A stretch of 64,000 nucleotides of DNA from an uncultured Candidatus Binatia bacterium (lineage in GTDB: Bacteria > Desulfobacterota > Binatia > Bin18), in contig OZ241744.1 of assembly GCA_965200965.1 (NCBI GenBank), positions 2,752,001-2,816,000 on the forward strand, read 5' to 3'. Below the pieces are notes generated by a model, which worked only from the letters and a program-made list of their open reading frames with translations, ran no database searches and was not told the origin of the DNA. A program made the translations under genes and the position numbers. Positions within the stretch are counted from its first letter, which is position 1, and every line of letters begins with the position of its first letter. Positions 1 to 13,062 of the stretch are shown here, one piece after another.

Positions 1-986
1 ACATCGGGGTTGCGGCCGGCCAGGGCGTAGCGGATTTCGTCGCCGGCCAGAGCGCTTTTCCTGGCCCGGGTGTGGCTCTCGACCAGGATGACTGAGCGGT
101 CCTTGCCCAGCAGGGCCAGGCGGTGGACGGCCCGGTTGAGGCTGACCAGGGTCGGTTCATAGACCAGGACCCGCTCGTCGGCGTGCTCAAAGAGCGAGAC
201 CAGGGTATCGGTATCGGTCATGCCGTCTACAATAACGAGGTGCGAGCGGTTGGCAAGCTGTTCGGTCAGCCATTGGACTGCCCCCGCGGCCGGCTGCGGG
301 GGCAGGCTGTCGCCGGCCCGGTAGCCGTAGACCGAGATGCGGGGCGAGGCCGCGGTCCGCACGCCGTCAATCAGGTCGGGGTTCGGCTCGGCGCTGGCGG
401 CGTTGTCAAGCACTTCTTCGAGACCCCGGGCCGGCTCAACATCGAGCATCAGCGGCAGCGCCCCGGAGGTCCGCTCCAGGTCAAGCGCCGACACATAGCT
501 GCCCTGGCTGGCCGCGGTCCGGGTCGTCACCGCGGCCAGGGTGGTGGCCCCGCTGCCGCCGCATCCGGCAAAGGCGATGACCCGTCCGGCGTACAAGCGG
601 GTCGGGCCGTCGTCGCTTTTGAGGGCGGTTGTCATCGCGTCGTGAATATCGCTGACCGTGACCGGCTTGGGCAGGTAGTCGCTGACCCCGTAGGCCAGCA
701 GTTCGCGGGTGAAGCGGGCCGTGTCGTTGGAGCTGATAGCCACTACCAGGGTACCCAGTTCCACCACGCCGGCCAGTTCGTGGATACGCCCGGCCGGAAA
801 CTCGCTGCCGTCGAGATCAACAAAGATCAAGCGGGGTGAAACCGAGTTGGCCAGGGTCTTGATGGCCGTAACAATATCGCCGCGCTGCACCTGTGCGCCG
901 CGGCCGGCCAGGGCCTCGTTCAGCACCTTTTCGGTGGCCGGGTCTCCGGCAAAGGCGCGGATTTCGTTGTTGTCGGGTGCTTCCAT
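1..986 (-). CDS. cpaE: Tad pilus assembly protein CpaE/TadZ-like (atypical receiver + MinD-like ATPase); runs off window edge
   Basis: Manual translation from ATG at 986: MEAPDNNEIRAFAGD...LIFVDLDG...GVSDYLPKPV...RVIAFAGCGGSGATT...LDL; absent from the ORF track because it is open at the edge; lies in tad locus. Confidence 0.8.
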   Translation of the reverse strand, partial: MEAPDNNEIRAFAGDPATEKVLNEALAGRGAQVQRGDIVTAIKTLANSVSPRLIFVDLDGSEFPAGRIHELAGVVELGTLVVAISSNDTARFTRELLAYGVSDYLPKPVTVSDIHDAMTTALKSDDGPTRLYAGRVIAFAGCGGSGATTLAAVTTRTAASQGSYVSALDLERTSGALPLMLDVEPARGLEEVLDNAASAEPNPDLIDGVRTAASPRISVYGYRAGDSLPPQPAAGAVQWLTEQLANRSHLVIVDGMTDTDTLVSLFEHADERVLVYEPTLVSLNRAVHRLALLGKDRSVILVESHTRARKSALAGDEIRYALAGRNPD

Positions 987-1014
987 ATCAGGATTCGCCG
1001 GCTGCCGGGCTTAT

Positions 1015-1368
1015 TCAGGATGACTGGCCGGTGCGCTCAATCAGAGCGCGCAGAGCGGTCATGGTTTCATCGTGTCGTCTTGTGTCCTCCTCGTGCTGTC
1101 GTTGCAGAGCGGTCATGGTTTCATCGTGTCGTCTTGTGTCCTCGTGGTGCTGCTTGTCCATGGCGGTCATGGTGGCTTCATGTTGCTTGTCCATGGCGGT
1201 CATGGTTTCGTGATGCTGCTTGTCACGGTGGTCGGCAGAGCGGCGCATGAGTTGGAGACCCCCGGCCAGGATGAGGGTCTGGCTGAGGCTGATGAGCAGG
1301 GCGGAGATGTCCACCCAAGTGGGCTGGCTGAGGCGGTCAATGGCTTCGATGATGCCCTGGTATTCCAT
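1015..1368 (-). CDS. Array protein A8 (last transcribed), 117 aa, TM helix + His/Met coiled coil
   Basis: ATG preceded by AAGGGAG; 3x11 + 2x7 aa modules; ends ALRALIERTGQSS. Confidence 0.8.
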   Translation of the reverse strand: MEYQGIIEAIDRLSQPTWVDISALLISLSQTLILAGGLQLMRRSADHRDKQHHETMTAMDKQHEATMTAMDKQHHEDTRRHDETMTALQRQHEEDTRRHDETMTALRALIERTGQSS

Positions 1369-1405
1369 AGGCTGGTGCTCCCTTGCAAGCGGCAAGCTGC
1401 CGGGC

Positions 1406-1741
1406 TTAGTGAGGGGACTGGCCGGTGCGCTCAATCAGGGCGCGCAAGGCGGTCATGGTTTCGTGGTGTCGCCTTGTGTCCTCCTCGTGCTGTCGTTCCA
1501 TCGCGGTCATGGTGGCTTCGTGCTGTCGTTCCATGGCGGTCATGGTGGCTTCATGTTGCTTGTCCATGGCGGTCATGGTTTCGTGATGCTGCTTGTCACG
1601 GTGGTCGGCAGAGCGGCGCATGAGTTGGAGACCCCAGGCCAGGATGAGGGTCTGGCTGAGGCTGATGAGCAGGGCGGAGATATCCACCCAAGTGGGCTGG
1701 CTGAGGCGGTCAATGGCTTCGATGATGCCCTGGTATTCCAC
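1406..1741 (-). CDS. Array protein A7, 111 aa
   Basis: GTG start; 3x11 + 1x7 modules; G>W variant in TM. Confidence 0.8.
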   Translation of the reverse strand: MEYQGIIEAIDRLSQPTWVDISALLISLSQTLILAWGLQLMRRSADHRDKQHHETMTAMDKQHEATMTAMERQHEATMTAMERQHEEDTRRHHETMTALRALIERTGQSPH

Positions 1742-1778
1742 AGGCTGGTGCTCCCTTGCAAGCGGCAAGTTGCCGGGC

Positions 1779-2147
1779 TTAGTGAGGGGACTGGCCGGTG
1801 CGCTCGATCAGGGCGCGCAAGGCGGTCATGGTTTGGTCATGGCGTCTTGTGGCCTCTTCGTGCTGCTTGTCCATCGCGGTCATGGCCTCTTCGTGCTGCT
1901 TGTCCATCGCGGTCATGGCCTCTTCGTGCTGCTTGTCCATCGCGGTCATGGTGGCTTCGTGCTGTCGTTCCATCACGGTCATGGTGGCTTCGTGCTGCTT
2001 GTCGCGGTGGTCGGCAGAGCGGCGCATGAGTTGGAGACCCCCGGCCAGGATGAGGGTCTGGCTGAGGCTGATGAGCAGGGCGGAGATGTCCACCCAAGTG
2101 GGCTGGCTGAGGCGGTCAATGGCTTCGATGATGCCCTGGTATTCCAT
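1779..2147 (-). CDS. Array protein A6, 122 aa
   Basis: ATG start; 4x11 + 1x7 modules. Confidence 0.8.
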   Translation of the reverse strand: MEYQGIIEAIDRLSQPTWVDISALLISLSQTLILAGGLQLMRRSADHRDKQHEATMTVMERQHEATMTAMDKQHEEAMTAMDKQHEEAMTAMDKQHEEATRRHDQTMTALRALIERTGQSPH

Positions 2148-2184
2148 AGGCTGGTGCTCCCTTGCAAGCGGCAAGCTGCCGGGC

Positions 2185-2562
2185 TTAGTGAGGGGACTGG
2201 CCGGTGCGCTCAATCAGGGCGCGCAAGGCGGTCATGGTTTCGTGGTGTCGCCTTGTGTCCTCCTCGTGCTGTCGTTCCATCGCGGTCATGGTTTGGTCAT
2301 GGCGTCTTGTATCCTCCTCGTGCTGTCGTTCCATCGCGGTCATGGTTTCATCGTGTCGTCTTGTGGCCTCGTGGTGCTGCTTGTCCATCGCGGTCATGGT
2401 TTCGTGATGCTGCTTGTCGCGGTGGTCGGCAGAGCGGCGCATGAGTTGGAGGCCCCCGGCCAGGATGAGGGTCTGGCTGAGGCTGATGAGCAGGGCGGAG
2501 ATATCCACCCAAGTGGGCTGGCTGAGGCGGTCAATGGCTTCGATGATGCCCTGGTATTCCAC
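2185..2562 (-). CDS. Array protein A5, 125 aa
   Basis: GTG start; 3x11 + 3x7 modules. Confidence 0.8.
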   Translation of the reverse strand: MEYQGIIEAIDRLSQPTWVDISALLISLSQTLILAGGLQLMRRSADHRDKQHHETMTAMDKQHHEATRRHDETMTAMERQHEEDTRRHDQTMTAMERQHEEDTRRHHETMTALRALIERTGQSPH

Positions 2563-2600
2563 AGGCTGGTGCTCCCTTGGCAAGCGGCAAGTTGCCGGGC

Positions 2601-2969
2601 TTAGTGAGGGGACTGGCCGGTGCGCTCGATCAGGGCGCGCAGGGCGGTCATGGTTTGGTCATGGCGTCTTGTGGCCTCTTCGTGCTGCTTGTCCATCGCG
2701 GTCATGGCCTCTTCGTGCTGCTTGTCCATCGCGGTCATGGTGGCTTCGTGCTGTCGTTCCATCACGGTCATGGTGGCTTCGTGCTGTCGTTCCATCACGG
2801 TCATGGTGGCTTCGTGCTGCTTGTCGCGGTGGTCGGCAGAGCGGCGCATGAGTTGGAGACCCCCGGCCAGGATGAGGGTCTGGCTGAGGCTGATGAGCAG
2901 GGCGGAGATGTCCACCCAAGTGGGCTGGCTGAGGCGGTCAATGGCTTCGATGATGCCCTGGTATTCCAT
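2601..2969 (-). CDS. Array protein A4, 122 aa
   Basis: ATG start; 4x11 + 1x7 modules. Confidence 0.8.
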   Translation of the reverse strand: MEYQGIIEAIDRLSQPTWVDISALLISLSQTLILAGGLQLMRRSADHRDKQHEATMTVMERQHEATMTVMERQHEATMTAMDKQHEEAMTAMDKQHEEATRRHDQTMTALRALIERTGQSPH

Positions 2970-3006
2970 AGGCTGGTGCTCCCTTGCAAGCGGCAAGCTG
3001 CCGGGC

Positions 3007-3330
3007 TTAGTGAGGGGACTGGCCGGTGCGCTCAATCAGGGCGCGCAAGGCGGTCATGGTTTCGTGGTGTCGCCTTGTGTCCTCCTCGTGCTGTCGTTCC
3101 ATCGCGGTCATGGTTTGGTCATGGCGTCTTGTGTCCTCCTCGTGCTGTCGTTCCATCACGGTCATGGTGGCTTCGTGCTGCTTGTCGCGGTGGTCGGCAG
3201 AGCGGCGCATGAGTTGGAGGCCCCAGGCCAGGATGAGGGTCTGGCTGAGGCTGATGAGCAGGGCGGAGATATCCACCCAAGTGGGCTGGCTGAGGCGGTC
3301 AATGGCTTCGATGATGCCCTGGTATTCCAT
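3007..3330 (-). CDS. Array protein A3, 107 aa
   Basis: ATG start; 2x11 + 2x7 modules; G>W variant. Confidence 0.8.
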   Translation of the reverse strand: MEYQGIIEAIDRLSQPTWVDISALLISLSQTLILAWGLQLMRRSADHRDKQHEATMTVMERQHEEDTRRHDQTMTAMERQHEEDTRRHHETMTALRALIERTGQSPH

Positions 3331-3368
3331 AGGCTGGTGCTCCCTTGGCAAGCGGCAAGTTGGCGGGC

Positions 3369-3779
3369 TTAGTGAGGGGACTGGCCGGTGCGCTCAATCA
3401 GAGCGCGCAGAGCGGTCATGGTTTCATCGTGTCGCCTTGTGTCCTCTTCGTGCTGTCGTTCCATCGCGGTCATGGTTTCGTGGTGTCGTCTTGTGTCCTC
3501 TTCGTGCTGTCGTTGCATCGCGGTCATGGTTTCATCGTGTCGTCTTGTGTCCTCGTGGTGTTGCTTGTCCATGGCGGTCATGGTGGCTTCATGTTGCTTG
3601 TCCATGGCGGTCATGGTTTCGTGATGCTGCTTGTCGCGGTGGTCGGCAGAGCGGCGCATGAGTTGGAGGCCCCCGGCCAGGATGAGGGTCTGGCTGAGGC
3701 TGATGAGCAGGGCGGAGATGTCCACCCAAGTGGGCTGGCTGAGGCGGTCAATGGCTTCGATGATGCCCTGGTATTCCAT
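3369..3779 (-). CDS. Array protein A2, 136 aa
   Basis: ATG start; 4x11 + 3x7 modules. Confidence 0.8.
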   Translation of the reverse strand: MEYQGIIEAIDRLSQPTWVDISALLISLSQTLILAGGLQLMRRSADHRDKQHHETMTAMDKQHEATMTAMDKQHHEDTRRHDETMTAMQRQHEEDTRRHHETMTAMERQHEEDTRRHDETMTALRALIERTGQSPH

Positions 3780-3817
3780 AGGCTGGTGCTCCCTTGGCAA
3801 GCGGCAAGCTGCCGGGC

Positions 3818-4153
3818 TTAGTGAGGGGACTGGCCGGTGCGCTCAATCAGGGCGCGCAAGGCGGTCATGGTTTCGTGGTGTCGCCTTGTATCCTCCTCGT
3901 GCTGTCGTTCCATGGCGGTCATGGTGGCTTCATGTTGCTTGTCCATGGCGGTCATGGTGGCTTCGTGCTGTTTGTCCATGGCGGTCATGGTTTCGTGATG
4001 CTGCTTGTCGCGGTGGTCGGCAGAGCGGCGCATGAGTTGGAGGCCCCCGGCCAGGATGAGGGTCTGGCTGAGGCTGATGAGCAGGGCGGAGATGTCCACC
4101 CAAGTGGGCTGGCTGAGGCGGTCAATGGCTTCGATGATGCCCTGGTATTCCAC
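3818..4153 (-). CDS. Array protein A1 (first transcribed), 111 aa
   Basis: GTG start; 3x11 + 1x7 modules; unique upstream sequence. Confidence 0.75.
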   Translation of the reverse strand: MEYQGIIEAIDRLSQPTWVDISALLISLSQTLILAGGLQLMRRSADHRDKQHHETMTAMDKQHEATMTAMDKQHEATMTAMERQHEEDTRRHHETMTALRALIERTGQSPH

Positions 4154-4182
4154 AGGCGGTGATGTTTGTGTGGAGCGGCCGG

Positions 4183-4479
4183 CTACTCAGTGACGATGGT
4201 TGTGACAGCCGGCAGTTCCTTCACTTCGTCGTCGGACCAGCGGGTGTAGGCCCCGGAGGTTGAGCCGTGGGCGTCTCTGGGCCGCTGGCCGGCGGCCTTC
4301 ATGTTTGTGGTGTACACGGTATCGGCGGCGTCAAGCTGGGTGCGGGCTTCTTTGAGCCCGGCCAGGGCGGCGCGGGTTGATGGGAGGGCGGTGCGGTCTA
4401 CGGCCATCGGCAGCACGGCGCAGCCGGCAGCAGCGAGGCTCAGACACAGGGCCAGGGTTGTGGATGTCGTTTGTCTCAT
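4183..4479 (-). CDS. Small lipoprotein downstream of secretin (position where CpaD/RcpB-type genes often lie)
   Basis: MRQTTSTTLALCLSLAAAGC lipobox. Confidence 0.65.
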   Translation of the reverse strand: MRQTTSTTLALCLSLAAAGCAVLPMAVDRTALPSTRAALAGLKEARTQLDAADTVYTTNMKAAGQRPRDAHGSTSGAYTRWSDDEVKELPAVTTIVTE

Positions 4480-4529
4480 GGCGGCACGCTCCACTGCAAT
4501 GCCCACCATATCACAAAGCACCCGCCGGG

Positions 4530-7174
4530 TTAATAATAATAGCCACGCAGGCGGCGGCCAGGGCTGGGCTGGTCGCGGTTGTTGTCCACAGGAGGAAACG
4601 TTTCATCTCGTCCTTGCGGGATGGTGGCGGCGTCGGTCAGCCGGGCGGTGACGACAATAATCAGTTCGGTGGCACTGGAGCGGACCGAGCGGGTGCCGAA
4701 CAGCAGGTTGACGATTGGGATGTCTTTGAGGAGTGGCACTCCGCTTTCGCGCGATTCGCTCTGGTCACGGTACAGGCCGGCGATGACGATGGACTCGCCG
4801 TTGCCGACCTCGACGGTGGTCTCGGCCCGGCGGCCGTCAATGACCGGGATATCTACTCCCGCGGCCCGCAGGGCTTCGGTCTCGGAGCGTTGCGAGACCT
4901 CGGAGCGGACGGTCAGCACAATCCGCCCGCTGTCTACCACGGTCGGCACAAAGTCGAGCAGGACGCCGAACTTCTTATAGGTGAAGATGATCGCCCCGTC
5001 CTCAAAGCCGGCCGGCAGCGGAAACTCGCCGCCGGAAAAGAAGCTGGCGGTTTCGCCCGATACCGCGGTCAGGCTGGGCCGGGCCAGGACGCTGACGAGG
5101 CCGGCGGTGGCCAGGGCGTCGAGCATGGCGGTGACCCGCGTACTGCCGTCGATAACCTGGTTCGTGAAAATCCCCGAGGCCGCGCCACCGGGCAGAGCCG
5201 TCCGCAAGAACTCGCTGGCCTCTTCATCAAGGAAGTCGCGTCCGATGAAGAGGTTTGTCTGGCCCCCACCGGCGTGGGTGTCAACGATCTCCCAGTTGAT
5301 GCCCAGGGCTTCGCTGACGCTGCGGTTCATCTCGGCGATCTGGACCTCGAGGTTGACCTGCTGTGCGCCGGAGACGATGAGGCGGTTGGTGACGGGAACC
5401 TCGCTCGGCAGGGCGGCCACGGCCAGCCGCACGGCCAAGTCGGCCTGGGCTGAGGAGGCGACTGTGCCGCTGAGTTCAACGCCTTGGCTGAGCTGCCGGA
5501 CGGAGATCCCTTTGAGGGCTTCTGCGCCCTCCAGGGCGGTCTGGACCGGGCCGACATCAATCACCGTGGCCACCGTCCAGGCGGCCAGCATCTCGCCGGC
5601 GGCGTCAAGTACGGCGACTGAGGTGCGGCCAATGGCTTTGCCGACGAGGTGCAGGACGCCGGAGGAAACGAGGCTGACATCGGCGATGTCGGGGTTGCCG
5701 ATGAAGACGGAGCCGGCCGGCGCGTCAAGGCGCAGCAGGCGGCTGTGGCCGAGGGGCAGGGTCAGGAGGGGGGCGGTGTGGGGCGGTGCGGGCTCTTCCT
5801 TCCCCTCCGGGGGGGAGGGAAGAAAAGGTGGCTGGGGCGGGCTGCCTGTGGGCGTGGGGCTGGCGGTTTGTGTTCCTCTGTCTGAGGGGGAGGAAGTGGG
5901 GGTGCGTGGCGTTGTACCGGGGGTCTGTGCTCCCTCTCCCCTTGGGGTTTGGGGTGAGGGGTCTTCGGGAGAAGGAACACCTGGGCGGTCCTGGCTGCCT
6001 GGGTCTACAGGAGGAGCGGTAGTGGTTTGCGCGGTTTGTGTGGGAGCGGGTGTCCCCGCTGCCTCTCCCTCTGAGGGGAGGGAAGGAGAGGCGGTTGCGG
6101 CTCGGCGGTGGTCTTTGCGCAGGTCAAGGACAATTTTGGTCATGCCGCCCTGGCGCAGGGGGAAGGTGCGCAGGTGGTAGTCGCCGGTGAGGGTGGCGGT
6201 GAAGGTGCGGCCGTCGGGGTCAAGGACGGCTTGGCTGATGTATGCGCCGAGGTGGTGGCGGATTGGCGCAAAGTCGGTGTGCATCTGCCGGCCAAACTCC
6301 ACGGTGAGGAGTCTGGCGTCCAGGCTGGCGGTGTAGCTGACGGTCTGGGGCCAGTCAAAGACGATGCGGCCGTAGTCGTTATGCGCCCAGGCACGGGTGA
6401 TGACTTGCTCGGCGGCAGCCCCCTCCGCCCGGCCCTCCGCCTCTGGGGGGGCGGTCTGGTCCGGGTCTTGCTCCCTCTCCCCTTGGGGGCTGGGGTGAGG
6501 GGTTGGGGTGGGCTGTGTGGGAGCGGGTGTTCCCGCTGCCTCCTCCTCTGAGGGGAGGGAACGAGAGGCGGCTGTGGCTCGGCGGTGGTCTTTGCGCAGG
6601 TCGAGGACAATTTTGGTCATGCCGCCTTGGCGCAGGGGGAAGGTGCGCAGGTGGTAGTCGCCGGTGAGGGTGGCGGTGAAGGTGCGGCCGTCGGGGTCAA
6701 GGACGGCTTGGCTGATGTATGCGCCGAGGTGGTGGCGGATTGGCGCAAAGTCGGTGTGCATCTGCCGGTCAAACTCCACGGTGAGGAGTCTGGCGTCCAG
6801 GCTGGCGGTGTAGCTGACGGTCTGGGGCCAGTCAAAGACGATGCGGCCGTAGTCGTCGTGCACCCAGGCACGGGTGATGACTTGCTCGGCGGCTGTCCCC
6901 TCTGTCTGGCCCTCCGCCTCTGGGGGGGCAGGAACGGGAAGGTGTGGCCCGCTGTCTGGGGGGGGGGTGGTCCGGGTCTTGCTCCCTCTCCCCTGTGGGG
7001 GTTGGTGTGGGCTGTGTCGGAGCGGGTGTCCCCCCTGCCTTCCCCCTCCAGGGGGGAGGGGATATGTGGCTGCCCGGTCGGCTCGGGGTCTGCCGGCTGG
7101 GCGTTGGCAGTCTTGTTGCCCCCTCCCATCCACAGCAAGAGGGCAACAAGGATTCCACATAGGAGTTTGGGCAC
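4530..7174 (-). CDS. cpaC: Tad secretin CpaC/RcpA with duplicated N-terminal periplasmic domain; 5' end frameshifted
   Basis: VFIGNPDIADV, QQVNLEVQIAE, LARPSLTAVSGETASFFSGGEFP, LLKDIPIVNLLF, TELIIVVT; signal peptide (GTG 7174, MPKLLCGILVALLLWMGGGNKTANA/QP) is in a different frame from the secretin body. Confidence 0.88.
6040..6920 (-). repeat. Internal ~477-bp-period duplication in cpaC (VITRAW...LDLRKDHRRATAAS x2)
   Basis: Two near-identical ~105-aa domains separated by Pro/Thr-rich linkers; boundaries approximate. Confidence 0.9.
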
Positions 7175-7250: not shown

Positions 7251-7511
7251 TCAGGATGAGTTGCCGGTTGAGTTGCCGGTTGAGTTGCCGGTTGAGTTGC
7301 CACCTTGGTCTCTCGCGGCTGTCACCCCTGCGGCCATATCAGCCCGGAGGCGTGTGAGTGAGTCTACGATTTCCTGCCTAAAGGCTGCCACCGCGGCCCC
7401 GAGACCAAGGGCGACCGCGCCGACCAGCATGGCGTATTCCAGGGCGGAGACAGCCTTGGTGTTGCGGAGATAACGACGGGCGGTTCTGGCGTAGTGTCTG
7501 ATGCGGGTCAT
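7251..7511 (-). CDS. flp: Flp family type IVb/c pilin with C-terminal GNST repeats
   Basis: Basic leader, KA/VSALEYAMLVGAVALGL Flp motif, GGAG RBS upstream. Confidence 0.88.
   Translation of the reverse strand: MTRIRHYARTARRYLRNTKAVSALEYAMLVGAVALGLGAAVAAFRQEIVDSLTRLRADMAAGVTAARDQGGNSTGNSTGNSTGNSS
7258..7301 (-). repeat. 12-bp tandem repeat (GGCAACTCAACC) x~3.7 encoding GNST
   Basis: Directly visible. Confidence 0.9.
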
Positions 7512-7585
7512 GCTTCTTCTCCTTTCCTTACAGAGCGGTGAATACATCATGTAGGGCCTTACATTGCAATTGGGGGCTGTCCCGT

Positions 7586-8077
7586 CTAGTTCAGGCTGGA
7601 TTGTGCAGCAGGGTCGGTGCGTTCAATGAGGACGCGGAGGGCCTCGCCTTGCTGGCGGAGGGCCTCGCCTTGCTGGCGGAGGGCCTCGCCTTGCTGGTGG
7701 AAGGCTTCACCTTGCTGATGGACTGCATCGCGGAAGGCTTCGCCCTGCTGGCGGAGGGCCTCGCCTTGCTGGCGGAGGGCTTCCATTGTCTCGGCGTGCC
7801 GGCGGGCATCGGCCTCCCCTTGGCGGGCAGATTCCTCCCCTTGGTGGGCGAAGGCGGCCATGACTTCCTCGTGCCGCTTTTGGTGCTCTTTCCCTCGTTT
7901 GTCGCTATCCCGGAGCATGTTCCGAATGCCTGACCAGATAATGGCGCATTGGGTGAGGCCGATCACGCCGGTGACGATGATCGAGACGACTTCTGTCCAC
8001 TTTGGCTCGTTGGCCGCCTGTTGGGCGGCCAACATGGCCTGCTGGAAGGCGAGTGTGGCGGTTTCAAACTCGGTCAT
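7586..8077 (-). CDS. TM + coiled-coil repeat protein B2 (163 aa), homologous to array proteins
   Basis: W-TM-Q..I..G..M.R....R.K.H pattern, RQQGEAL heptads, ends ALRVLIERT. Confidence 0.8.
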   Translation of the reverse strand: MTEFETATLAFQQAMLAAQQAANEPKWTEVVSIIVTGVIGLTQCAIIWSGIRNMLRDSDKRGKEHQKRHEEVMAAFAHQGEESARQGEADARRHAETMEALRQQGEALRQQGEAFRDAVHQQGEAFHQQGEALRQQGEALRQQGEALRVLIERTDPAAQSSLN

Positions 8078-8130
8078 GGCCTCTCTTCTAAACGACGGGC
8101 GGTTTTGGCGCAGCGTCTGATGTGGGTCAT
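8074..8130 (-). pseudogene. Truncated second flp pilin (leader only)
   Basis: MTHIRRCAKTARR matches flp leader MTRIRHYARTARR, with similar upstream region and RBS; body replaced by the B cassette. Confidence 0.7.
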
Positions 8131-8184
8131 GCTTCTCCTCTCAAAGAACTGTGATCATAATCATATGGGGCCTTACATTACAAA

Positions 8185-8676
8185 CTAGTTCAGGCTGGAT
8201 TGTGCAGCAGGGTCGGTGCGTTCAATGAGGACGCGGAGGGCCTCGCCTTGCTGGCGGAGGGCTTCGCCTTGCTGGCGGAAGGCTTCACCCTGTTGGCGGA
8301 AGGCTTCACCTTGCTGATGGACTGCATCGCGGAAGGCTTCGCCCTGCTGGCGGAGGGCCTCGCCTTGCTGGCGGAGGGCTTCGCCTTGCTGGCGGAGGGC
8401 TTCCATTGTCTCGGCGTGCCGGCGGGCATCGGCCTCCCCCTGGCGGGCGAAGGCGGCCATGACTTCCTCGTGCCGCTTTTGGTGCTCTTTCCCTCGTTTG
8501 TCGCTATCCCGGAGCATGTTCCGAATGCCTGACCAGATAATGGCGCATTGGGTGAGGCCGATCACGCCGGTGACGATGATCGAGACGACTTCTGTCCACT
8601 TTGGCTCGTTGGCCGCCTGCTGGGCGGCTAACATGGCCTGCTGGAAGGCGAGTGTGGCGGTTTCAAACTCGGTCAT
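8185..8676 (-). CDS. TM + coiled-coil repeat protein B1 (163 aa)
   Basis: Near-identical to 7586-8077 with rearranged heptads. Confidence 0.8.
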   Translation of the reverse strand: MTEFETATLAFQQAMLAAQQAANEPKWTEVVSIIVTGVIGLTQCAIIWSGIRNMLRDSDKRGKEHQKRHEEVMAAFARQGEADARRHAETMEALRQQGEALRQQGEALRQQGEAFRDAVHQQGEAFRQQGEAFRQQGEALRQQGEALRVLIERTDPAAQSSLN

Positions 8677-8686
8677 GGCCTCTCTT

Positions 8687-10195
8687 CTAGTAGATGCGGC
8701 GGAAGCGTTTCAACTGCTGGGCGATGGAGCGAAAGGCGTCCTTCAGGGTCTCGGGCGTGGCGTTGTTGACAAAGACATAGGTTCCGTCCGGGTCATCGGC
8801 CGCACTGGAACACTGGGTCAGGGAGTTTTTCAGGCTCGCCGAAACGGTGGGCATGGCGGCAATGGCAAATATCTTGATGCCGGCGTTCTTGGCCGCGGTA
8901 CACGCCCTGTTCCGATGGCCGGCATGACGGGTATCCGCGCCATCGGTGAGCAGGACCAGGGCTTTTTGCACGGCCTCGTTGGCCGGGTCGGCCGGGTGGG
9001 TCCCGCCGCCCCATACGGACCGCCAGGAGGGGGCGAGCAGGCGGTGTGCCCAGGTCACGCCAACCGCGGAATAGGTGTCGCTGCCGGCCGCCTGCAAGCC
9101 GTTGATCGCTGTCCGTATCGCGCCGGTATCGGTGGTCAGCGGTATGATCGGGGGCGGGGGGAGCCCGCAGGTATATTGGATATCGTCATTGCTCAGCTTT
9201 GCAACGCCCGTACCCGGTGTACCGTGATAACACCAGTCCTGCCCCTTTGGGGGAGCGACACACTCGAAAGAGCCGTAAAAGTGTTGCAGGTTCGGCGGCA
9301 CATTGTAGAACTCCATTGTAAACGGTGTGTCCGCCGGCGGGGCGGAAGAAAAGGCCGGCGGGTTGCTGCCGGAGGTGGAACGCTGCTCAACACAGCCCTT
9401 CCAGGCCTGGGGCTTGGTGGCCGGGAGCGTCTGCCACTCGCCGGGGGCGTAAGTTTTCCTCCAGTTGGTGCCCACGGTCCAGTAGGGCTTGGGATACCAG
9501 CGTTGGGTTGGGTAGACCGCCCAGCCGTTGTTTTCCCAGTGTGTTCGCTCGGTGGGGCCTAAGCGGACCTGTTCATCCCAGGGAACGAGTCCGATTGCCG
9601 CGGAGCCGTCACCGCTGGCGTTCAGGATGTTGACGAGTTCCAGGGCGGCCCCTTTGACGACCGTCAGGAGCGAATCGGTACTCCCAGACAGGCGGCTCAT
9701 TGAGCTGGTGACATCAATAGCCAGGGCAACCTCGGTCAGGCGTTCGAGCTGCTCAAAGCCGCTGCGGGTCTCTGAGGTGGCGGCGATATTGCCCCAGAGC
9801 CAGCGGCCAAAGACGGCACCGCCAAGGTCGGCCTTGGCGTGGACGCCGACCGTGCCGGCGGTGCAGTTGGGGGTGAGGGTGACTTCCAGGGTTTCGTCGG
9901 CTCGGTCGCGTTTGCCCGCGGGCAGGTTGGACAGGATGTAGCGTCTGGCTATGGGGCTGAGGGCGGCGTTGAGTTGGGCGTCGGTCATGGTGGTGCAACT
10001 GAGGCTTTCCATCTCGTTCATCAGAGCGACACCGGCCGAGTCGGAGGCAACCTGGAGCAGGTCACGCTGCCAGGTAAGCTGGTGGTGGTCGCCGACGAGG
10101 GCGATGCCGGCCAGGCTCAGCATGGTGAACATGCCGGCGGTGAGGGTGGTGGCGACGGCGGCGGTGCTGTGCAGAAATGCTGTGAGGTGTGTCAT
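8687..10195 (-). CDS. TadG-like pilus adhesin with von Willebrand A domain
   Basis: N-terminal hydrophobic helix + LQVASDSA; MIDAS DVTSSMS, LLTDG; tad context. Confidence 0.82.
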   Translation of the reverse strand: MTHLTAFLHSTAAVATTLTAGMFTMLSLAGIALVGDHHQLTWQRDLLQVASDSAGVALMNEMESLSCTTMTDAQLNAALSPIARRYILSNLPAGKRDRADETLEVTLTPNCTAGTVGVHAKADLGGAVFGRWLWGNIAATSETRSGFEQLERLTEVALAIDVTSSMSRLSGSTDSLLTVVKGAALELVNILNASGDGSAAIGLVPWDEQVRLGPTERTHWENNGWAVYPTQRWYPKPYWTVGTNWRKTYAPGEWQTLPATKPQAWKGCVEQRSTSGSNPPAFSSAPPADTPFTMEFYNVPPNLQHFYGSFECVAPPKGQDWCYHGTPGTGVAKLSNDDIQYTCGLPPPPIIPLTTDTGAIRTAINGLQAAGSDTYSAVGVTWAHRLLAPSWRSVWGGGTHPADPANEAVQKALVLLTDGADTRHAGHRNRACTAAKNAGIKIFAIAAMPTVSASLKNSLTQCSSAADDPDGTYVFVNNATPETLKDAFRSIAQQLKRFRRIY

Positions 10196-11373: not shown

Positions 11374-13062
11374 CTACTGGCCGGGCAGGGCAATTCTTAC
11401 CATTGTGCCCTGCCCGGGCAGGGATCTGAGAGAGATGCTGCCCTCGTATTTCTGCACAACATGTTGGGCTGTCGTGAGGCCCATGCCTTTTGCATCAGGC
11501 CTGGAGGTGTAGAACGGCTCAAACACCTTTTTTCGATGCTCGGCCTCAATGCCGTCTCCATTGTCGGCGATGATGATGAGCACCGTGTCATCCTCACGTT
11601 TGGTCTCGATGCGGATGAGGCTGTTCTTCTTGCTCCGGTGCTCAAGGGCGTACAGCGAGTTGTCAAGAACGCTGGTGACAATCAGCCCGATGTCGGCCTT
11701 GGCAGCCAGGACCTTGGGCAGCGGGTTCAACTCCTTGACGACGACCGCGGCCGTTTCGGCCTTGGTGCTTTCTACGGCCTCATCGATGCAGTCGTTGATG
11801 TTCAGCCGCTCCCGGGCGTTGTCCCCGGTCTGGAACAGCGACGGCAGGCGGTCGGCGACCTCGACAATATCGCCGGCCTGGGCACGGATGCTTGAGAGCA
11901 GCGCGGCCGCGGTTTTGAGCTCTTCGTCGGCCACCGGCGGCGAGCCGGCTTCGTTCGAGCGCAGCTTGGCCTGCACATCGTCAAGAATGTCCAGGTTGCC
12001 GGTGATGTGCTCTCCGCAGGAGGCCAACTGCCGGGCGACGACCTCCAGCCCGGCCCGCTGCGCCACGCCCTCCGCGGCGCGGTCGGGGCCGACGGTCTGT
12101 TGGTCGGCCTCCAGGGTCGCGATCAGATTGTCCAGCCCGTTGGACTGTCTGCGCCTGGACCGCTGGGCCAGCCCGGCCACCGGGCTGGAACCGGGGATAT
12201 CCGCCGGCGCTTCCTGGGGCGCGTTCTTGGGCAGGCGCAGGGCAATGGCCAGCCACATCAGCCACAGCGCCCCGCCCGAGGCCAGGATGCCGTTTTCGTA
12301 GTAGTCAACCAGAACCTCTTTGCGGTCGGCCTCGGCTTTTAGGTTGGCGCTCAGGCTCTCGCCATAGTCGCTGATGGTGCTGGATGTGGCCTCCTGAAAG
12401 AACGCCTCGGTCGGTTCGTATTTGTCGAGCAGCACGAGGCCGTGGCCAACAAGATTCTGGGCCGGGCTGGTCAGCACCGGGTAACGGGCGGTGATGCGAT
12501 TGCCCACCTGGACAAGTACGCGCGTCAGGCGTTCTTTTTCCGGTGGGGTCGGGGTGGTGATATAGGCGGTGATATCGTTGGTGACGGTCGAAACGCTGCG
12601 GACGAACGACGCGTTGCCGTTTCTCTGTCGTATCTGGTTGATGAGGGTGCTGGAGGCCTGCGGCAGGTAGCGGATGGAATTGCGCAGAACGGCATAGCCG
12701 GTCTTGAAGCGCTCTACTCTCTCTTCCTTGGCATCAATGGCGGTCAGGTAGGCGTTGAGATCATAGCGCATCCGTTCTGGCAGGTCAGGGATGGTCCGCA
12801 TGGTGTCCGACAGCTCGGCCTTGAGGCGTTCTATCCGGGGGATGAAGGAAATGAGGCCGTCAAAGTCAGACAGCGGGTCCGCTCGGACCCGGGCGGCCTC
12901 AACGCTCCACTGGGATTCAATCTGGTTGATCCGCTGAATAAGGGAAATGGCGAGCCGATGGTTGGCCGGCTGATTGGTGCGGGCCATCCAGTACAACCCC
13001 GCCGCGATGGTCACGAGAAACAGCGAGAAAAAGACGCCGATGGTGAGTGATCTGGATCGCAT
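11374..13062 (-). CDS. Membrane sensor histidine kinase-like protein (all-helical, DAHL-like periplasmic sensor; HATPase domain; degenerate H-box)
   Basis: Two TMs; ERFKTGYAVLRNSIRYLP; N box LDNSLYA, DNGDGI, FEPFYT, GMGL. Confidence 0.8.
   Translation of the reverse strand: MRSRSLTIGVFFSLFLVTIAAGLYWMARTNQPANHRLAISLIQRINQIESQWSVEAARVRADPLSDFDGLISFIPRIERLKAELSDTMRTIPDLPERMRYDLNAYLTAIDAKEERVERFKTGYAVLRNSIRYLPQASSTLINQIRQRNGNASFVRSVSTVTNDITAYITTPTPPEKERLTRVLVQVGNRITARYPVLTSPAQNLVGHGLVLLDKYEPTEAFFQEATSSTISDYGESLSANLKAEADRKEVLVDYYENGILASGGALWLMWLAIALRLPKNAPQEAPADIPGSSPVAGLAQRSRRRQSNGLDNLIATLEADQQTVGPDRAAEGVAQRAGLEVVARQLASCGEHITGNLDILDDVQAKLRSNEAGSPPVADEELKTAAALLSSIRAQAGDIVEVADRLPSLFQTGDNARERLNINDCIDEAVESTKAETAAVVVKELNPLPKVLAAKADIGLIVTSVLDNSLYALEHRSKKNSLIRIETKREDDTVLIIIADNGDGIEAEHRKKVFEPFYTSRPDAKGMGLTTAQHVVQKYEGSISLRSLPGQGTMVRIALPGQ

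Follow-up and report, generated by a model that had tools for sequence, protein, structure and literature searches.

The stretch analysed here, hereafter the window, comprises 64,000 nucleotides (nt) of the genome of an uncultured Candidatus Binatia bacterium, and close to its start an array of eight small tandem genes lies within an operon for a Tad pilus. The genes occupy positions 1015-4153 on the minus strand and are numbered T1 to T8 from the copy nearest cpaE. T1 (1015-1368, 117 amino acids, aa) encodes a protein ending in ...ALRALIERTGQSS (...GQSS), which is the exception to the C-terminal end ALRALIERTGQSPH of the array proteins. The start codons were set by the common N-terminus MEYQGIIEAIDRL, which gives ATG in five copies, namely T1, T3 (1779-2147, 122 aa), T5 (2601-2969, 122 aa), T6 (3007-3330, 107 aa, the shortest) and T7 (3369-3779, 136 aa, the longest), and GTG in three, namely T2 (1406-1741, 111 aa), T4 (2185-2562, 125 aa) and T8 (3818-4153, 111 aa). 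T8 is transcribed first and has its own leader in place of the spacer found ahead of the other seven copies. This spacer is 37-38 nt long with a Shine-Dalgarno-like AAGGGAG; it reads GCCCGGCAGCTTGCCGCTTGCAAGGGAGCACCAGCCT at 1369-1405 on the minus strand, and the remaining six lie on the same strand at 1742-1778, 2148-2184, 2563-2600, 2970-3006, 3331-3368 and 3780-3817. A preliminary description of the window had reported eight intact, co-oriented reading frames of 107-136 aa with a secretin and a lipoprotein gene on one side and cpaE on the other, a shared spacer with a ribosome-binding site before seven of them, and a constant N-terminus and C-terminal cap around a variable stalk, and all of this agrees with what is found here. 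Its strand has to be corrected to minus, and its count of eight is right for 1015-4153 but not for the operon as a whole, where two further members of the same family, K1 and K2, had been overlooked.

All eight frames are open, with zero stops or frameshifts, and their first 153 nt are 96.7-100% identical between pairs of copies (mean 98.4%). Behind this constant part the tails are built from repeats of 11 residues (HEATMTAMDKQ-type, 33 nt) and of 18 residues (HEEDTRRHDETMTAMERQ-type, 54 nt), and the copies always differ in length by multiples of 33 or 54 nt, in frame, so that the stalk varies by whole repeats. Such an array could be an assembly error, or a non-coding repeat that is open by chance; no contig or read spans it, and high-GC repeats of this kind are open on the opposite strand as well. 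In order to check whether it is real, short-read Logan contigs from four runs (X1, X3, X4 and X11), each from a different study, were examined. The contigs break at ~ 1077-1098 and ~ 4097-4128, leaving short internal pieces, and none of them crosses the array. In run X1, the contigs of which are at least 99% identical, a 104-nt piece present five times in the assembly has a depth of 200.3, an 80-nt piece present four times a depth of 130, and four unique pieces, one copy each, depths of 28.5-39.8, the flanks being at 29.1-38.2. The depths thus track multiplicity (200.3 : 130 : ~ 34 for 5 : 4 : 1 copies) and support a copy number of eight, short of proof, as X1 may be the source sample of the assembly. 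The contigs of the three further studies (X3, X4, X11) also end at the array or contain portions of it, and contigs of three runs besides X1 match its flanks at 95-100% identity.

Coding evidence points the same way. Within the array, the proportion of synonymous differences (pS) over codons 2-51 is 0.044 and that of non-synonymous differences (pN) 0.004, and within the array of a sister species (genome G007, the window's genome being G000) the values are 0.046 and 0.005. Synonymous changes exceed non-synonymous ones about tenfold, and the constant part is under purifying selection within the arrays. With pN far under pS, an orthologous five-copy array in G007 and an architecture kept in relatives at 25-45% identity, the artefact is already largely refuted and we hold it to be hardly conceivable. 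Moreover, in runs X3 and X4 the depth ratios of the internal pieces differ from those in X1, and near-identical proteins of 89, 99, 100, 118 and 140 aa occur on other contigs, one of them of 3,603,827 bp; array make-up therefore probably differs between strains. The stretch is present in runs labelled "sponge metagenome" and others, from eight studies in all, and no RNA run was listed for positions 500-5000.

The eight proteins, together with K1 and K2, align with 13 diverse members of one protein family and reach E-values of up to 3.9e-39 against its profile. We defined this family by a length of 70-270 aa, an acidic N-terminal segment, a membrane helix bearing a Gln, an excess of Lys/Arg (K/R) after it, an H-x-E-x-M-x-A-L unit, short repeats and a cap near the C-terminus, and T1-T8 and K1/K2 belong to it. 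The N-terminal segment has ~ 20-30 residues and often reads MTE[YF]ETAxLAL. The membrane helix is hydrophobic with a central Gln and small residues (VGxxQxxLIxxG), the Gln being inside the helix in 119 of 136 representatives. A basic juxtamembrane stretch (M-R/K...RD) leads into a conserved first unit, H-x-E-T/A-M-x-A-L (H-x-E-x-M-x-A-L), followed by repeats of 7, 11 or 18 residues, which vary in number, and by the cap ALRxLIERT(A/G)P, the pattern L-x2-L-[IVL]-x-R-[TS] being found in 98 of 149 representatives. When the 13-member profile was searched against a library of 1.84 billion representatives, 670 clusters (50% identity) were matched at E ≤ 1e-3 and 233 at E ≤ 1e-10. The lengths lie between 71 and 268 aa in all 150 clusters listed of the 670, and two matches only are longer or fused forms, P0182 and P0029, the latter probably a read-through. 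When ten clusters were looked up, none of the 23 listed members carried a usable name.

K/R residues are more numerous after the membrane helix than before it in 135 of the 136 representatives with a clear helix (means 3.5 vs 0.46). By the positive-inside rule, which is established knowledge, the N-terminus would probably be outside and the tail cytoplasmic. AlphaFold2 with the family alignment predicts for T7 a short helix (residues 4-13) and one long helix (19-132) with a predicted local distance difference test score (pLDDT) of 92.0, and for K1 helices at 3-21 and 27-154 with a pLDDT of 92.7. The hydrophobic period peaks at 3.6 residues in 43 of the 83 family tails analysed; for the array tails, seven of the eight have their peak at 3.60-3.66. 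On a helix, a 3.6 period would give a straight stripe, unlike the 3.5-residue stripe of a heptad coiled coil. With regard to rods of the single alpha-helix (ER/K) or hendecad coiled-coil type, the observations are Glu/Arg-rich 18-mers, the 3.6 period and one long predicted helix.

The composition of the tails suggested metal binding as one role, in which Cu(I), Ag(I), Zn or Ni would be coordinated by the His/Met repeats (with H-x3-M and M-x2-M on a single helix face), an array of such tails adding buffering capacity. Indeed, each array tail of 66-95 residues contains 8-13 His and 5-9 Met, and HxxxM occurs 3-5 times and MxxM 2-4 times per tail. In the alignment of 13 members, conservation of the first-unit His and Met is 90% or more, and at a 3.6-residue period the His, Met and Met fall on one face. 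However, in other subfamilies QQGEALR or QALERQG units devoid of His and Met replace these repeats, and the annotation of the window and of the genome flank shows no metal-resistance genes nearby. Furthermore, Cu(I) sites rich in Met are typically periplasmic, as opposed to the cytoplasmic side predicted for these tails. We consider metal binding very improbable.

Searches of Pfam, NCBIfam, PHROGs, PADLOC and Protein Data Bank (PDB) sequences gave only sub-threshold matches that reflect coiled-coil or membrane-helix composition. Tir_receptor_C (PF07489), at 23.8 bits vs a Pfam cut-off of 25, was rejected as a match of composition and membrane helix only, and NCBIfam transloc_TIR was rejected at 19.3 vs a cut-off of 500. 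Rz-like i-spanins appeared through three PHROGs, each matched by one of the 13 members (best E 3e-5), and the predicted inside location of the C-terminus (C-in) opposes them; weak coiled-coil matches to PADLOC defence proteins (DndD, ZorA, LeoBC, PbeC; best E 4.3e-4, at most 3 of the 13 members) were also discarded. Five family members compared with all of Pfam-A gave no match to DUF1043 (YhcB) or DUF883 (ElaB/YqjD) at E ≤ 0.01, and K1 reached a best score of 0.84 in the ESM Atlas, under the useful range. The literature on tad pili, CpaE/TadZ, Binatia and sponge symbionts and the cap motif strings, searched mostly at listing level, yielded no description of the family. As far as the literature and curated libraries searched show, the family is undescribed and has neither a curated model nor a name.

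The operon in which the array is embedded reads in the same direction. A cpaE/tadZ-like gene (3-986, minus strand, 379 aa) extends past the start of the window, its start codon lying 28 nt after the T1 stop, and is followed in the genome by cpaF, tadB and tadC. On the other side of the array, a lipoprotein-like frame (4183-4521, minus, 112 aa) lacks a family match and sits downstream of the secretin, in the position of CpaD/RcpB; the secretin itself is of CpaC/RcpA type (4530-7160, minus, 876 aa, Pfam Secretin 6.6e-39). Beyond it are the Flp pilin gene (7251-7550, minus; ...AVSALEYAMLVG..., with C-terminal GNST repeats) and the two further family members, K1 (7586-8077, minus, 163 aa) and its tandem duplicate K2 (8185-8676, minus, 163 aa), both with QQGEALR heptad repeats and an ALRVLIERT cap and located between flp and a gene for a TadG-like protein with a VWA domain (8687-10195, minus). 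At the head of the operon, a DAHL-domain histidine kinase gene (11374-13062, minus) overlaps the end of a TadE-like gene by 20 nt and may encode a locus-specific regulator. The genes tadV (Peptidase_A24) and cpaB/rcpC are beside tadC on the opposite strand (G000 2746991-2748149, plus; L020 8962-10288), so the Tad locus is split into two divergent units. The array is probably co-transcribed with the Tad operon, since no terminator-like site was found on the minus strand inside 1015-4153.

With flp, the secretin gene, cpaE, cpaF, tadB, tadC, tadE/F/G-like genes, tadV and cpaB/rcpC each present as separate genes, the Tad machine is complete without the stalk family, and its gene content leaves no missing part for the stalk proteins to replace. 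The T and K proteins gave zero matches to T2SSE, T2SSF, Secretin, RcpC, Peptidase_A24 or the CpaE-type ParA/MinD fold, nor did they match Flp_Fap (PF04964), and the T start MEYQGIIEAIDRL has no prepilin motif. The genuine flp product matches Flp_Fap at E 9.6e-5 (below the cut-off) and shows ...SALEYAMLVG. Two earlier statements are supported in this way, namely that the array proteins are not pilins, the prepilin leader and the Glu+5/Tyr+6 pattern being missing, and that no canonical tad component is equivalent to them, as no Tad profile or curated family was matched. The component list of the Caulobacter Tad machine, as given in the accessible part of its description, contains no protein of this sort either (PMC13170226).

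Three further observations concern the pilus genes themselves. The secretin carries two N-terminal modules of ~ 125 aa (residues 90-214 and 249-373) with Pro/Thr-rich linkers between, identical at 118 of 125 positions, which represent a recent internal duplication; no Pfam name was found for the module. The end of the Flp pilin, GNSTGNSTGNSTGNSS, is a short Asn-Ser-Thr repeat that resembles stacked glycosylation sequons. In a relative (G020:C1:1531320-1532451) cpaE is split by an in-frame TGA, and the Tad locus of G020 may be decaying.

The family is by no means confined to the Tad operon. The window's genome, a single contig of 3.62 Mb, contains ~ 24 copies at ~ 14 loci, some 12 of these being elsewhere than in the Tad operon, which accounts for 8+2 copies. 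There is a tandem block of four at 2.176-2.178 Mb and a group of two at 1.771-1.772 Mb; one copy lies directly downstream of recA with a truncated one 7 kb away, and single copies are found among hydantoinase and acyl-CoA dehydrogenase genes. An intact copy is located between mod (N6_N4 methylase) and res (Res helicase) of a type III-like restriction-modification system (G000:C1:2377160-2381870; L017 7161-11868), with a stop-containing copy 3.8 kb from it. A defence island has a family copy at either edge; one of the two, which is frameshifted, separates hsdM from hsdS in a type I restriction-modification operon. This island (G000:C1:1011000-1027200; L012, L013) is bounded by the two family copies in inverted orientation and holds, besides hsdR, hsdM, the frameshifted copy and hsdS, a patatin gene with SMODS (CBASS-like), two HTH-M78 genes, GmrSD, FRG and PIN.

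In order to survey relatives, a cap-pattern scan was run with one genome per species and gave 119 relatives; the 77 loci kept are biased to members with the cap AL[RE][ATV]LIERTA, the narrow alignment A3 having been used. Metagenome-assembled genomes (MAGs) labelled Candidatus Binatia/Binatota contributed 64 of the 77 loci, and MAGs labelled Alphaproteobacteria, Nitrospinota, Thermodesulfobacteriota, Gammaproteobacteria, Terriglobia or "bacterium" the other 13. Tad loci hold five of the 77, on four contigs, and none of the 13 non-Binatia loci. Recurrent neighbours belong to large Binatia families (luciferase-like, acyl-CoA dehydrogenase, SDR, CoA-transferase), and others are ankyrin-repeat proteins, Phd/PIN/HigB modules and an integrase with ArdC. 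At five of the 77 loci the family gene adjoins a homologous N6_N4 DNA methylase. In an Alphaproteobacteria MAG (L104 8372-19449) a four-copy array lies directly upstream of rpoB-rpoC. Tandem blocks, of up to six copies, make up 12 of 94 family blocks outside the window array. Of the upstream neighbours 73 of 93 share the orientation of the family gene, and of the downstream ones 61 of 94, which was taken to be ordinary for bacteria. Among 151 Binatia genomes the family is present in 24, belonging to 3 of 74 genera (3/3, 13/15 and 7/8 genomes), and in a smaller sample around the window's genome in 12 of 41. The positive genomes among the 151 have 1-29 matches each, many with in-frame stops; overall, the better-sampled relatives have 4-30 profile matches per genome, and some genomes as few as 1-2. 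Hence, the Tad-specific system that had been proposed is not borne out, given homologues that follow recA, precede rpoB, or lie inside restriction-modification operons or amid metabolic genes. The preliminary description had named genome-wide scatter without Tad association as evidence against its proposal: the scatter is found, the lack of association is not, since a member lies upstream of cpaE in 8 of 19 genomes.

This association was followed across relatives by checking the slot ahead of cpaE in each of the 19 genomes found to carry this gene. An intact member stands directly upstream of cpaE in eight of them (G000 with eight copies, G007 with five, G001, G006, G116, G139, G092 and G167), decayed remnants are present at both loci of one (G004), and the slot is empty in ten. 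Extra members occur near flp, tadG or tadC, some of them on the opposite strand, with five genes in 8 kb in G167 and three in G139. Several Tad loci hold 2-5 members vs ~ 0.02-0.04 expected from the density in each genome, the genomes being kin. The occupants of the slot fall into two clades, one beginning MEYQG... (G000 and G007) and the other MTEYETA... (five others). A cpaE of the window's type is found in 15 of the 151 Binatia genomes, in the same three genera, and all 15 have the family; conversely, 9 of the 24 family-positive genomes have no match to it. The Tad link is real but loose, and the family is not a core Tad part.

A role dedicated to the Tad machine was weighed against these data. 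The caps would dock onto the ring formed by CpaE dimers and the CpaF hexamer, and the different lengths would set the depth of the ring, as a ruler or tether, or tune extension and retraction. The 28-nt distance between T1 and cpaE, the occupied slots in genomes of two genera, the extra members near flp, tadG or tadC, the restriction of both family and window-type cpaE to the same 3 of 74 genera with 15 of 15 co-occurrence, and a tail predicted to be cytoplasmic, as CpaE and CpaF are, all fit such a role. In Caulobacter, a cryo-tomography study describes six CpaE dimers that ring CpaF at the inner membrane, with CpaE shifting downward when the cell is piliated (PMC13170226), and by analogy a membrane-anchored spacer would have a plausible target. 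A more elaborate form of the idea sees an evolvable module, in which graded stalks of 9-14 nm, lengthened or shortened by 11 or 18 residues at a time with the phase kept, would keep the conserved cap at defined depths below the inner membrane, where it would capture or limit the CpaE/CpaF ring, so that copy and repeat number act as a fast-mutating dial of pilus dynamics in sponge symbionts. However, most family members are far from Tad genes, over a third of the family-positive Binatia genomes (9/24) have no window-type cpaE, the slot has no occupant in 10 of the 19 genomes and only decayed remnants in G004, and its occupants come from two separate clades. Moreover, the cap is common to copies in unrelated contexts, which makes a Tad-specific partner unlikely, and common descent and a common habitat confound the co-distribution. 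A single prediction of the complex between CpaE and the T7 tail (residues 42-136) scored 0.00 and 0.00 and counts neither way. We regard a dedicated Tad accessory as unlikely, if worth keeping in view, and the evolvable module as quite unlikely.

The surroundings of the other copies raise an alternative in which the family is a passenger of the flexible genome, i.e. cargo for exclusion, addiction or membrane-level defence, or of no benefit at all, and the Tad island a hot spot of landing and amplification. The copies inside type I (hsdM/hsdS, frameshifted) and type III (mod/res) operons, the N6_N4 methylase at 5 of 77 loci, and the copies beside Phd/PIN/HigB modules and beside an integrase with ArdC would suit cargo of this kind, as would the in-frame stops in many copies of relatives and a patchy spread over 3 of 74 Binatia genera and single MAGs of five other labelled groups. 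The family loci of the window's genome also pair within 12 kb, with six pairs vs ~ 0.5 expected. Several of these pairs have cap variants in common or come out as sister sequences in the tree, and the pairing, the shared caps and the tree together suggest short-range duplication. However, no shared non-coding flanks, hairpins, or inverted or direct terminal repeats were seen around the paralogues, transposase linkage is absent, most neighbours are ordinary metabolic genes, PADLOC and PHROG gave no convincing match, and purifying selection operates within arrays. A mere passenger thus seems decidedly doubtful.

As for the arrays themselves, their copies group by species in the tree, those of G000 forming a clade with 100/100 support. 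In G007 the array spacers carry a ~ 260-nt piece of the 5' end of cpaE (L051 12424-14530), and the G000 unit is without it; the K1/K2 unit holds a 5' fragment of flp (window 8078-8184). These cpaE and flp fragments mark the breakpoints of the tandem duplications. The clustering by species and the unlike borders of the units indicate that the arrays arose by ordinary tandem duplication, probably independently in the two species.

Taken together, we favour the reading that the eight genes are genuine paralogues in tandem, from a lineage-restricted, unnamed family of single-pass membrane proteins, a dispensable accessory that recurrently accumulates in the Tad island rather than a core part of the pilus, and we consider this reasonably likely. 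Each protein would form one long alpha-helix, with its repeat-built tail in the cytoplasm and the conserved cap at the end. In this array, the tail would be an amphipathic rod spanning ~ 9-14 nm between membrane and cap, with a narrow His/Met/Ala/Leu stripe at a period of 3.6. As 11 and 18 residues correspond to about 3 and 5 helical turns, a repeat gained or lost would change the length while barely shifting the face of stripe and cap. Most likely, the proteins would associate with one another, or dock onto a partner present in every context, by way of the Gln-bearing membrane helix and the Leu/Ile cap. Copies come from short-range and tandem duplication, and length differences from in-frame gain and loss of repeats. 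In the Tad operon the stalk proteins would be made together with CpaE, and the same accessory also gathers in restriction-modification, toxin-antitoxin and ordinary metabolic neighbourhoods.

Several points weigh against this reading. The presence of the family in all 15 cpaE-positive genomes and its strong local enrichment at Tad loci fit a more specific Tad function. The copy numbers rest on one assembly and on contig depths that possibly come from one sample. Between the two species (G000 vs G007), the ratio of non-synonymous to synonymous substitution rates (dN/dS) of the constant N-terminus is ~ 0.43, which indicates weak constraint or fast adaptive change; the protein evolves quickly. 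Furthermore, the topology, the rod shape and the self-association are all predicted, and long single helices are what AlphaFold2 readily gives for repeat sequences; a lone helix of 114 residues is not a stable state by itself.

The analysis defines an unannotated family of simple architecture and odd genome dynamics, with local and tandem duplication and in-frame length change, and one Binatia lineage the Tad island of which repeatedly gathers family genes beside cpaE, flp and tadC. Should the stalks prove to act on the Tad machine, a membrane-anchored cytoplasmic accessory with a gene repertoire of varying length would be described for these pili for the first time; otherwise, the stalks offer a clean case of repeat-built small membrane proteins that spread and amplify inside operons. 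Either way a profile model for the family is merited, as gene callers now leave its members as anonymous open reading frames.

Compared with known systems, the canonical Tad components, from Flp through TadE/F/G, share operon and strand with the array, but the array proteins match none of them. Rz-type i-spanins likewise have a membrane helix followed by a long coiled coil, the weak PHROG matches being at the level of composition. Their coiled coil is periplasmic, whereas the stalk tails are predicted to be cytoplasmic (C-in in 135 of 136 representatives), and no o-spanin, holin, endolysin or other lysis genes were found in the neighbourhoods examined. SilE and PcoE are soluble periplasmic proteins with a signal peptide and repeated HxxM, MxxM and HxxxM motifs in helices; the stalks, in contrast, are membrane-anchored with a tail predicted in the cytoplasm, their motifs are not family-wide and no sequence match was found. 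ElaB, YqjD and YgaM (DUF883) of E. coli are small helical inner-membrane proteins with one anchor helix and several paralogues per genome, but they are tail-anchored, with the anchor at the C-terminus, repeats and arrays are absent from them, and the stalk family has no Pfam match. YhcB (DUF1043; ZapG/LapD) of Gammaproteobacteria, with ~ 130 aa, an N-terminal membrane helix and an oligomerising cytoplasmic coiled coil, differs in being single-copy, in lacking tandem repeats and a conserved C-terminal cap and in its taxon, and DUF1043 was not matched here. PodJ is also a single-pass protein with a cytoplasmic part rich in coiled coil and a tie to the Tad/Cpa system via CpaE, but it is large, has a periplasmic domain and is encoded by a single gene outside the pilus operon. 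In Caulobacter crescentus it is reported to be a polar scaffold that recruits CpaE and PleC (PMC9684454, PMC8980812). It has no sequence similarity to the stalk family and no repeat-length variation, and any link between the stalks and CpaE is hypothetical. The kind of protein found in the array, a small membrane-anchored helical stalk, is already known from the unrelated YhcB, ElaB and PodJ.

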